From contig JBHLLF010000001.1 of the NCBI GenBank assembly GCA_048885865.1, positions 1-64,000 on the forward strand: a stretch of DNA of 64,000 bases. The letters are read 5' to 3'. Each line of letters starts with the position of its first letter. Positions within the stretch are counted from its first letter, which is position 1. The translations under genes and the position numbers were made by a program. Below the pieces are notes generated by a model that was given only the letters and a program-made list of their open reading frames with translations, was not told the origin of the DNA and ran no database searches. Source of the stretch: Candidatus Hermodarchaeota archaeon. Its GTDB lineage: Archaea; Asgardarchaeota; Thorarchaeia; Thorarchaeales; Thorarchaeaceae. Of this stretch, positions 3,975 to 6,603 are shown one piece after another.

Positions 3975-4658
3975 TCACCCGACTGATTCACCAAATCGAA
4001 GGAGTTCTGACTTAGCTTTTTCGTTGCCAGGATCGACAACAAGAGCCGCTTTAAAGAATCGGATAGCATCCTCCTCTTTGCCTAGCTCCTCCAGGCAAAT
4101 ACCTGAATTGATTAATGGGAATGGGTCTCTGGGGCTATAATCAGATGCTTTTCTATAATAGACCAGTGCGTTGTCATAGTCTTCCTTCATATGATAGCAG
4201 ACACCAATGTTGTTCCATATCTGTGGGTAATCTGGCTCGAGTTTTGCTGCTTTCCTATAGTACTTGATGGCATCATCATACTTCTCCATCTTCCGTAGCA
4301 CATTGGCAAGATTGAACCAGGGCTCGGTATATTCAGGATCGGTTCGGCAAGCCTGCATGTAGCATTCTGCCGCCTCTTTGAGCTTTCCAGCTGCTTCCAG
4401 AGCCTGACCCTTGTTGTTGTTTGCATACTTGTGTTTCGGGTCCATCTCCAAAGCCATGTTACAGCTGTGGACTGCTTCAAGATATCTTCCAAGAGCGATA
4501 AGACATGCACCATGGTTGTTCCAACCCATAGGATCGCCCGGGCATATTGTGGTGTATCTATTGTAACAGGTTAGCGCCTCTTGGAATTCCTGTTTTTCAA
4601 ACAAGCTATTGCATTCTCGGAAGACTGCCTCACATGACTCAGTCCTCTCATATGGCAA
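3975..4658 (-). CDS. Tetratricopeptide repeat protein
   Basis: About 6 tandem 34-aa repeats (WNNHG, WFNLA, WNNIG; A..Y..A...P). Confidence 0.9.
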   Translation of the reverse strand: MPYERTESCEAVFRECNSLFEKQEFQEALTCYNRYTTICPGDPMGWNNHGACLIALGRYLEAVHSCNMALEMDPKHKYANNNKGQALEAAGKLKEAAECYMQACRTDPEYTEPWFNLANVLRKMEKYDDAIKYYRKAAKLEPDYPQIWNNIGVCYHMKEDYDNALVYYRKASDYSPRDPFPLINSGICLEELGKEEDAIRFFKAALVVDPGNEKAKSELLRFGESVG

Positions 4659-4879
4659 ACACTCTCACCTCAATCGAGTCTTATTTTGACAACGGCGTAT
4701 TTGTACATTCCCCTATTTGTCCCCATTAACCTGCATGTCAGGCTATGCTGCCGCACAAGTCCTCACCATAGGTGCTTCTGGTGTTGTCTTGTGCCTAGAC
4801 TTGCTAAAATCTCATATCGCAACCTTGAAATTCCAGTCCAGCAACTATTATATACTACTATACCGTATTATACATGCAA

Positions 4880-5180
4880 TGCTTAGAGTGCGCCACGACG
4901 AACACGTATTTTAAGTGGGGGTTGGGGCGCAGACCAAAACCTTAATGCGGTTACGTGACAAGTTAGGGTGGAGCCACCATACTGTTTATGTAACACATTA
5001 TGGCTGACTCTATAGCAAGGGCGCAGCACAACTGATGTGGGTCGGTCTCGGATTCTGGCGTGCGATCCGGACCTCGCATATTGCTCCAAAATGAGCTCTA
5101 TGGAACGTGACGCACAAATCATTAGGTGGTGGCGCGGCAAGCGTTACGTTGCCCATTTGGGCTGTGCCCACCTCATTCTT
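4880..5180 (+). ncRNA. Candidate structured non-coding RNA of unknown family
   Basis: Long-range helix 4925-4938:5156-5169, nested helices, crossing helix 4890-4896:5129-5135; G-U pairs favour the + strand; TATA-like ttatata at 4848-4854; no convincing ORF. Confidence 0.55.
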
Positions 5181-5256
5181 CTTATTGAGTAGAACAGAAT
5201 GCTAGCTCTTATTAGGGCGACCTATGATTAGGCAAGACAACTAGGGGGTTGGGTTT

Positions 5257-6603
5257 ATGGATGATGATATGAACGGTGTTCTTCCTTCCGAGTCAGAGAA
5301 GCTGATTGAAGAGGCAAAGACAGCGCTGTCGCGCGATCAGTATGCTGTCGCCTACAAGAAAGCTGAGGAGGCAATAGAGATTGAACCTAGTTCGGCAGTT
5401 GCTTGGAAAATCCTTGCACAGGTTGAGGTAGGTCGGAAGAATCTCAATGCAGCGATTAAGGCGTTCAAGAAATCTGTTGAACTGGACTCCGATGACTGGG
5501 AGAATTGGAATAACCTCGGTGCATTATTACTGCATGATGGAAAATCTCAAGAAGCGAAAGGTGCACTTGAAAAAGCTGCGCGACTCAATCCGGGAGATAC
5601 TGGCGTCACAAACAATCTTTCCTTTCTCTATGAAAAACTAGGTGAATTAGATAAAGCTGAGAAATTACATCAGGAACTGGTTGAGAGGCGTCCTATGGAA
5701 TGGACCGCATGGAGCAACATGGGTGCCTTTTTGATGAAAGTTGGAAGATATGACGAATCTGAGAGTGCCTTAAGAAAAGCTATTGAACTAGGCCCCAAGG
5801 AAGACAGTCCTAGAACGAATCTTGGGTCATTGCAGTATCTTCGAGGCGATACAAGAGGAGCGATTGAAACCCTTACTGCAGCAGCAAAGCTGAACCCGAA
5901 GAGTCAATCAGCAATCTTGCAGCTTGCCAAAGTCTTGGCCGAAATGCGGAGACTCACTGAAGCTGAGAAGCTTTTAACGAGGGCTGAAGAACTTGGCCCT
6001 GTGGATCCAGAATTCAAGTTTTATGTAAGGATGGCTCTTGGACAGCTAATTATGCAGGAAGAGCAGCTGCGAAAGAAAACGAAGCGCCATAGCGAATCAT
6101 CAACTCCATGGATTGAATTGGGATGGAATCTTGTTCAGCAAGGGAAGCTAAAGGATGCTGAAAAGATTCTGAAGAAAGCCACGAAGAAGGTTCCACCGAG
6201 TGCGGCTGCTTGGTATTATCTCGCAGGAACTCAGAGTGAGATGGACAAGTTGAAGGAGTCGGTAATTTCTTTTCGCAAGTCACTAGAGCTTGATCCTTCC
6301 TTGAATCAAGCACGATTCGAATGCGCCAAGGTTCTTACTCGTATGAAGGACGATGAACAAGCGGTGACTCTTCTTCAGGAGGCAGTGAAGGTTCAACCAG
6401 ACTGGGCTGATGCATGGGGATTGTTGGGGACCACACTAGGTGCTCTGGAAAAGTATCAGGATGCACTTGAAGCCTTTGAGAGGCTAAGCAAATTGACGCC
6501 TGATGATCCATTTGTCTGGAATATGATTTCACTCTCTTATGAGAAGCTTGGGAAGACCAATGAAGCCAAAGAGGCTTCTGCGAAAGCGAGGAAATTGAGA
6601 TAG
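5257..6603 (+). CDS. Tetratricopeptide repeat protein
   Basis: About 12 TPR units (WNNLG, WSNMG, WYYLA, WGLLG). Confidence 0.9.
   Translation: MDDDMNGVLPSESEKLIEEAKTALSRDQYAVAYKKAEEAIEIEPSSAVAWKILAQVEVGRKNLNAAIKAFKKSVELDSDDWENWNNLGALLLHDGKSQEAKGALEKAARLNPGDTGVTNNLSFLYEKLGELDKAEKLHQELVERRPMEWTAWSNMGAFLMKVGRYDESESALRKAIELGPKEDSPRTNLGSLQYLRGDTRGAIETLTAAAKLNPKSQSAILQLAKVLAEMRRLTEAEKLLTRAEELGPVDPEFKFYVRMALGQLIMQEEQLRKKTKRHSESSTPWIELGWNLVQQGKLKDAEKILKKATKKVPPSAAAWYYLAGTQSEMDKLKESVISFRKSLELDPSLNQARFECAKVLTRMKDDEQAVTLLQEAVKVQPDWADAWGLLGTTLGALEKYQDALEAFERLSKLTPDDPFVWNMISLSYEKLGKTNEAKEASAKARKLR

Follow-up and report, generated by a model that had tools for sequence, protein, structure and literature searches.

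The question raised by this locus is what is encoded in the intergenic block at positions 4880-5180 of the window, the 64,000-nucleotide stretch of DNA analysed here from the host genome (G000). The initial annotation had placed there, on the + strand, an undescribed Asgard RNA of about 300 nt, folded into a probable pseudoknot. The motifs quoted in its support are all found in place, the block is indeed richer in GC than the whole window (0.52 versus 0.46), and its + strand folds better than shuffled versions do (z -3.46, 0/100), with z -1.87 for the - strand. The alignment of homologues restricts conservation to a shorter stretch, the 154 nt at 5019-5172 of the + strand. Comparative analysis argues that the block holds a genuine folded ncRNA gene, smaller and differently folded than first proposed.

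The conserved core (5019-5172, with ends GGGC...GCCC-ACC) forms a four-way junction, in which helices P1 (5019-5027:5161-5169) and P2 (5037-5042:5151-5156) lead to P3, P4 and P5, all on the + strand. P3 is a hairpin (5044-5073) with 8 of its 10 pairs varying on both sides, and is capped by the invariant loop L3 (about 5055-5064, UGGCGUGCG). P4 (5078-5101) carries an A-rich loop (5087-5092) and shows covariation, as do helices P1 and P2, and helix P5 (5104-5113:5141-5150) closes loop L5 (5114-5140). The near-invariant motif of L5 (5125-5136, GGUGGUGGCGCG) has one 3-nt deletion among 64 sequences. In these 64 distinct sequences, with a mean identity of 64%, the stems drift, while GGCGUGC of L3 (invariant in all), the L5 motif and the CCCACC end stay fixed; UGGCG is common to both invariant loops. 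Both-side changes occur in 28 of the 40 pairs, 96% of the cells are paired, and the covariation score is 0.557, compared with 0.27 for shuffled and at most 0.13 for slid alignments.

Covariation thus backs the 154-nt junction, whereas the long-range helices of the 300-nt pseudoknotted fold fail in homologues and that fold is not supported. For the closing helix proposed at 4925-4938:5156-5169, the mean is -19.8 kcal among five very closely related genomes, -7.6 among more remote ones of the genus and -5.3 outside it, whereas the true helix P1 keeps about -19.7 kcal in all genomes compared; the only basis for the closing helix is that 4925-4932 repeats, almost exactly and in direct orientation, 5019-5026 of the true P1 strand. 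The helices nested within it (4939-4947:5120-5127 and 4947-4956:5105-5113) are lost in homologues, and their 5' strands overlap the BRE-TATA promoter. Among the small hairpins, that at 5044-5073 and gctc:gagc survive in the new fold, while atgtgg:tcgcat and ggcaa:ttgcc are displaced by the covarying P2 and P5. The helix proposed to cross the closing one (4890-4896:5129-5135) is not conserved in its register, although complements to the loops do recur upstream, within the longer of two putative transcripts.

These transcripts follow from two predicted promoters. The proximal one, promoter P2 (4932-4947, + strand; BRE-TATA consensus GACCGAAAGGTTTAAC), lies 22-39 nt 5' of the core in most homologues, with a peak at 30-31 nt, as in the tRNA promoters of the host. 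In the host genus this distance is 71-72 nt because of an extra leader hairpin (4968-5012, + strand), which begins near the predicted P2 start and is followed by an A-rich linker; this hairpin had been proposed before, at 4964-5012, and is upheld for the host genus only, with equivalent hairpins of different sequence in L014, L015 and L019. Reading the promoter P2 motif as an RNA hairpin was rejected, since it pairs only in some genera and its spacing is promoter-like. The TATA box at 4848-4854 (+ strand), noted from the start, is real and turns out to be the upstream one of the two promoters. This putative promoter P1 is present genus-wide, even behind a different upstream gene (L009), and would yield a longer transcript of about 295 nt starting at about 4877; other genera also have a TATA-like box further upstream of promoter P2. 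The longer transcript would include a genus-level hairpin (4889-4931, + strand, z -2.25) holding GCGCCAC (4890-4896), which is complementary to the UGGCG of L3 and L5. Similar complements stand at variable upstream positions in other genera, with about a quarter of 44 homologues having an upstream complement to L3 or L5 at p<=0.05, and it is possible that the leader masks the loops in the longer transcript, which is what survives of the pseudoknot first proposed. At the 3' end, ACC is followed by a pyrimidine tract (5170-5186, + strand), the putative terminator, like that found after the tRNA genes of the host. ACC then a pyrimidine is seen in 64/64 sequences and ACCA in none, whereas tRNA genes of the host encode CCA.

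No match over the RNA was obtained in Rfam at E<=10 for the host or E<=5 for six divergent homologues. The gene is single-copy in the host genome. BLAST finds it in 42 of 60 genomes of the host family and in 0/40 other Asgard genomes, and the covariance model in 24 of 26 genomes of the Thorarchaeota family and in 0/124 other Asgard genomes, a count based on a limited number of candidates scored per genome, which heavily intron-split copies could escape. The two family genomes in which the RNA was missed are also without the neighbouring permease gene, and a third has an assembly gap at the site, so that the missing copies are probably assembly gaps. Matches of a GTDB-wide pattern search that also score in the covariance model are archaeal records, among them ones labelled Thorarchaeota and Promethearchaeota. 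The pattern search of five other Asgard genomes gave no homologue outside Thorarchaeota, the bacterial matches in GTDB included none, and there was none among the IMG/VR and metagenome matches listed. In the literature searched, no description was found of this RNA or of any regulatory sRNA in Asgard archaea. The RNA family is uncatalogued and was found only in Thorarchaeota, and the initial annotation of an undescribed Asgard ncRNA on the + strand is supported.

Known classes of RNA do not account for it. The original view that it is neither SRP nor RNase P RNA is borne out: archaeal SRP RNA (RF01857) gives no covariance-model match and is carried at other loci by 55 of 60 relatives, and the true RNase P RNA (RF00373) of the host lies at C4:63429 (162.6 bits), GAGGAA being absent from the block. 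The SRP RNA of the host itself was not found in its 87%-complete assembly, and neither were 16S and 23S rRNA, which its relatives have. A tRNA is rejected given that ARAGORN calls nothing at the locus and that there is no T-loop and no encoded CCA; a tmRNA, given that the third pair is G3-C instead of G3-U70 and that indels break any reading frame. A box H/ACA or C/D guide does not agree with the ACC tail, the variable internal loop between P1 and P2, or the lack of conserved C/D boxes or an rRNA complement, and no known model of a self-cleaving ribozyme in Rfam matches. The T-box (RF00230) is likewise discarded: there is no Rfam match, no Stem I or specifier, a helix of the A2 type would clash with P5 and is excluded by its covariation, the neighbours are unrelated and the RNA is not a leader. 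The resemblance to the antiterminator lies in L5, which looks like the T-box sequence including UGGU.

L5 is also the place where the gene is interrupted in some relatives. Four inserts of 29-30 nt were found in three genomes at two sites of the + strand, one between 5126/5127 in host numbering (homologues L019 and L172) and the other between 5129/5130 (L069 and L172); the host gene itself has no intron. All four form a bulge-helix-bulge (BHB): the internal helix is long, and a central helix of 4 nt separates two bulges of 3 nt, each cut after its second base. The central helix consists of three pairs and one A-G, and the outer helix is weak. Such introns are familiar in tRNA and rRNA and in a small number of other transcripts. 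Relaxed bulge-helix-bulge sites that match these inserts have been described (PMC4090602), and Asgard tRNAs are rich in introns, often with many in each (PMC11291895). Removal of the inserts restores the L5 consensus, and in L172 the motif at site 2 forms only once the intron at site 1 has been removed. The gene for the splicing endonuclease EndA is present in the host. Splicing of the L5 introns by the tRNA endonuclease is inferred from these features, and the introns are the best support at hand that the gene may be transcribed and that L5 may work as RNA. In the host, introns of ~31-34 nt interrupt many tRNAs outside the canonical position, in the T arm, the variable arm or the D arm. Almost every tRNA gene there encodes a complete CCA, and one for tRNA-Sec is located at C4:15723-15813.

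The RNA shares with archaeal BHB-intron tRNA genes (PMC4090602, PMC11291895) the promoter spacing, the terminal stem, the pyrimidine tract, and relaxed introns of 29-30 nt with ordered removal of adjacent ones. Unlike them, it is twice as long and is without D/T-loop consensus, anticodon arm and encoded CCA.

What two fixed loops on drifting stems could pair with was sought in mRNA leaders. The best match to L3 among 3026 leaders of the host is that of a 309-aa membrane-protein gene (target 1, C6:107461), which precedes a gene for a MinD/ParA-like ATPase (352 aa) in an operon at C6:107393-109445 (L300). The protein is helical and restricted to Thorarchaeota, with no match in Pfam, the atlas or PDB folds. 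In the host, the leader forms a hairpin that sequesters the Shine-Dalgarno (SD) sequence and exposes a 7-nt loop, CACGCCA, matching L3; an SD-sequestering hairpin is found in most genera. Opening the site costs 2.4-3.5 kcal, compared with about -19 for the duplex.

Among orthologous leaders of target 1, 16 of 22 rank within the top 1% for complementarity to L3 or L5 and also exceed shuffled loops (p<=0.05); with target 1 picked for its match in the host and the orthologues being related, this amounts to perhaps 3-4 independent events. The leaders of four control families gave 0/35, 0/21, 0/24 and 0/13 (0/93 in total), the background of the host is 52 of 3026 (1.7%), and of the genes with the SD paired to an upstream arm 14 of 589 are in the top 1%, by that criterion alone. 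The position of the site varies, being 5' of the SD, between the SD and AUG, or in codons 2-4. The loop that is matched can be L3 or L5 depending on the orthologue, and certain substitutions preserve the pairing through G-U (L417, L420); three orthologues have no site. Target 1 was detected in 22 of 80 family genomes, whereas the RNA is nearly universal.

The same 7-nt loop is exposed on an SD-side hairpin of an unrelated Cys-rich gene of the host (target 2, C72:4827), where conservation of the site is moderate; GCACGCCA before an SD occurs twice in the host, compared with 0.14 for permutations. Target 2 (C72:4827-6662, L354) encodes 612 aa with repeated Cys/His zinc-ribbon-like modules, and occurs widely in the family, often next to a paralogue of ~760 aa. 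GCACGCCA also stands directly before the SD in leaders of L408-L410 (genus g6), L413, L398 and L388; the genes behind these leaders, possible lineage-specific targets, are an LRR gene, genes of 501 aa and 296 aa, and a HicA-like gene. Genome-wide, complements of the loops are not enriched near start codons, and family-wide pattern searches, those with L5 patterns included, revealed no further recurring target. The 5' part of L5 is SD-like, and anti-SD arms acting in cis could mimic a target. Two paralogous genes of the host for Rab-like GTPases with a long coiled tail (C18:61474 and C21 about 2253) have a common L5-complementary site 15 nt 5' of the start codon.

From these observations it appears somewhat probable that the RNA is a stable trans-acting base-pairing sRNA of Thorarchaeota, built on a tRNA-like scaffold and using its two loops as seeds. 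Transcription would start at promoter P2 (and P1); the ends may then be trimmed to GGGC...ACC in the manner of a tRNA, and the tRNA endonuclease would remove the intron from those precursors that have one. The four-way junction would then display L3 and L5 as G-rich seeds, and their partners would be C-rich sites adjacent to the SD in a small number of mRNAs. For target 1 of the host, the simplest reading is that loop-loop pairing would open the SD hairpin and activate translation, while pairing at a site that separates the SD from AUG or lies within the first codons would repress it; the direction of regulation is the least certain step. The combination of a conserved accessible seed and conserved sites near the starts of unlinked genes was found for one gene family. 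Against an sRNA counts the extreme invariance of the loops, which is more typical of housekeeping RNAs. The full scheme, in which a regulatory RNA matures like a tRNA, has its pairing loop assembled by the tRNA splicing endonuclease in some lineages and activates by loop-loop pairing with SD-sequestering hairpins, is possible and is put forward tentatively. If true, it would be an Asgard sRNA controlled by tRNA splicing. What is new here is the combination of tRNA-like ends and a spliced seed loop, in a family that is near-universal in Thorarchaeota and has a structure backed by covariation and a concrete candidate mRNA target. Introns at two sites in the invariant loop of a small RNA that is not a tRNA indicate that the loop works as RNA, and would broaden the set of RNAs cut by the splicing endonuclease in the lineage that is closest to eukaryotes.

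Base pairing in trans has precedents in archaea, where sRNA154 of Methanosarcina mazei (also sRNA41 and sRNA162) stabilises some mRNAs and masks the ribosome-binding site of others (review PMC5867862). Like sRNA154, the Thorarchaeota RNA is intergenic and conserved in its lineage, with two loops predicted here to pair with mRNAs in trans. It differs in having no sequence or Rfam relation to sRNA154, in having G-rich seeds for C-rich sites beside the SD and not for the SD itself, and in its four-way junction, its ends of tRNA type and the BHB introns that interrupt the seed loop. In bacteria, DsrA and RprA activate rpoS by an anti-antisense mechanism and GcvB uses a G/U-rich seed on C/A-rich elements upstream of the SD; these RNAs depend on Hfq and their seeds are unstructured. 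The opening of an SD hairpin and the binding of a seed upstream of the SD are likenesses by analogy only, given that the Thorarchaeota RNA is archaeal and presents its seeds as loops of a compact scaffold.

The main rival reading, which we consider unlikely, is that the RNA is a housekeeping tRNA-like or RNP RNA. Pairing between L3 and L5 (CGUGC:GCGCG) would make an elbow, and GGU/UGGU would bind 3' RCC(A) ends, either its own ACC, that of another copy or that of an uncharged tRNA, as done by L15 of RNase P or the T-box bulge. The order of the junction is cloverleaf-like, the promoter spacing, ends and terminator resemble those of tRNA genes, the introns are of the tRNA type, the invariance ends at two complementary 5-nt segments and P3 and P5 are similar in length; the likeness of L5 to the T-box consensus counts in the same direction. 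Nonetheless, there is no T-loop and no G3-U70, CCA is never encoded, and the invariant bases of L3 and L5 yield no covariation by which their pairing could be tested. Moving complementary sites in the leaders of target 1 are also left unexplained, and these are what the trans-acting sRNA accounts for.

That L5 is a Shine-Dalgarno mimic, which binds the anti-SD of 16S rRNA and parks 30S subunits, is very improbable. L5 begins with AGGUGGU and the SD consensus of the host is GAGGTG/GGTGA, but the leading A varies, the better GGUGAU is used in no lineage, L3 would have no role, and neither 16S nor 23S has a conserved long complement.

The genes around the RNA bear on the remaining alternatives. 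The upstream TPR gene (3975-4658, - strand) is a non-conserved neighbour outside the system, and the downstream one (5257-6603, + strand) is a neighbour in 2 of 64 loci; TPR genes adjoin the RNA at 7 of 64 loci, none of them outside the host genus, which argues against the TPR partner once suggested. More often, the gene next to the RNA encodes a small protein whose N-terminus is hydrophobic, an FtsX-type permease, a PIN-domain protein or a beta-propeller protein. The neighbours vary and 8 of 64 next genes are on the opposite strand, and there is no conserved ORF in the RNA gene, which has its own predicted promoter and terminator; it therefore appears to behave as a stand-alone gene. The initial model, a pseudoknotted and ribozyme-like RNA of 300 nt to which a neighbouring TPR protein binds, gains from the good folding of the entire block and from the second promoter, which could give an RNA of that size with a loop-pairing leader, but is highly improbable in view of long-range helices that are unconserved and overlap a promoter, TPR neighbours that are genus-specific and no match to a ribozyme family. 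Just as improbable is that the RNA is a cis-regulatory leader or riboswitch controlling an ABC-permease operon downstream, or a tRNA hidden by multiple introns: an FtsX-type permease gene does lie downstream in about half of the loci and Asgard tRNAs often have many introns (PMC11291895), but a terminator stands directly 3', the intervening genes vary and some downstream genes face the opposite way, while a multi-intron tRNA should show the opposite of invariant loop tips on varying stems, and a T-loop cannot be put together. A multi-intron or permuted tRNA-Leu(UAG) is rejected, tRNA-Leu(UAG) being located elsewhere in the genome.

At L117:3806-5710 and 20 other loci, in several genera, the PIN-domain gene (about 600 aa) and the RNA gene are divergently transcribed; the leader of the former has no complementarity to L3 or L5. 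At L051 (~1713; G020 C53), the L5 loop recurs in a degenerate second copy ~100 nt 3' of the RNA gene, a pattern like that left by a site-specific integration or a local duplication.
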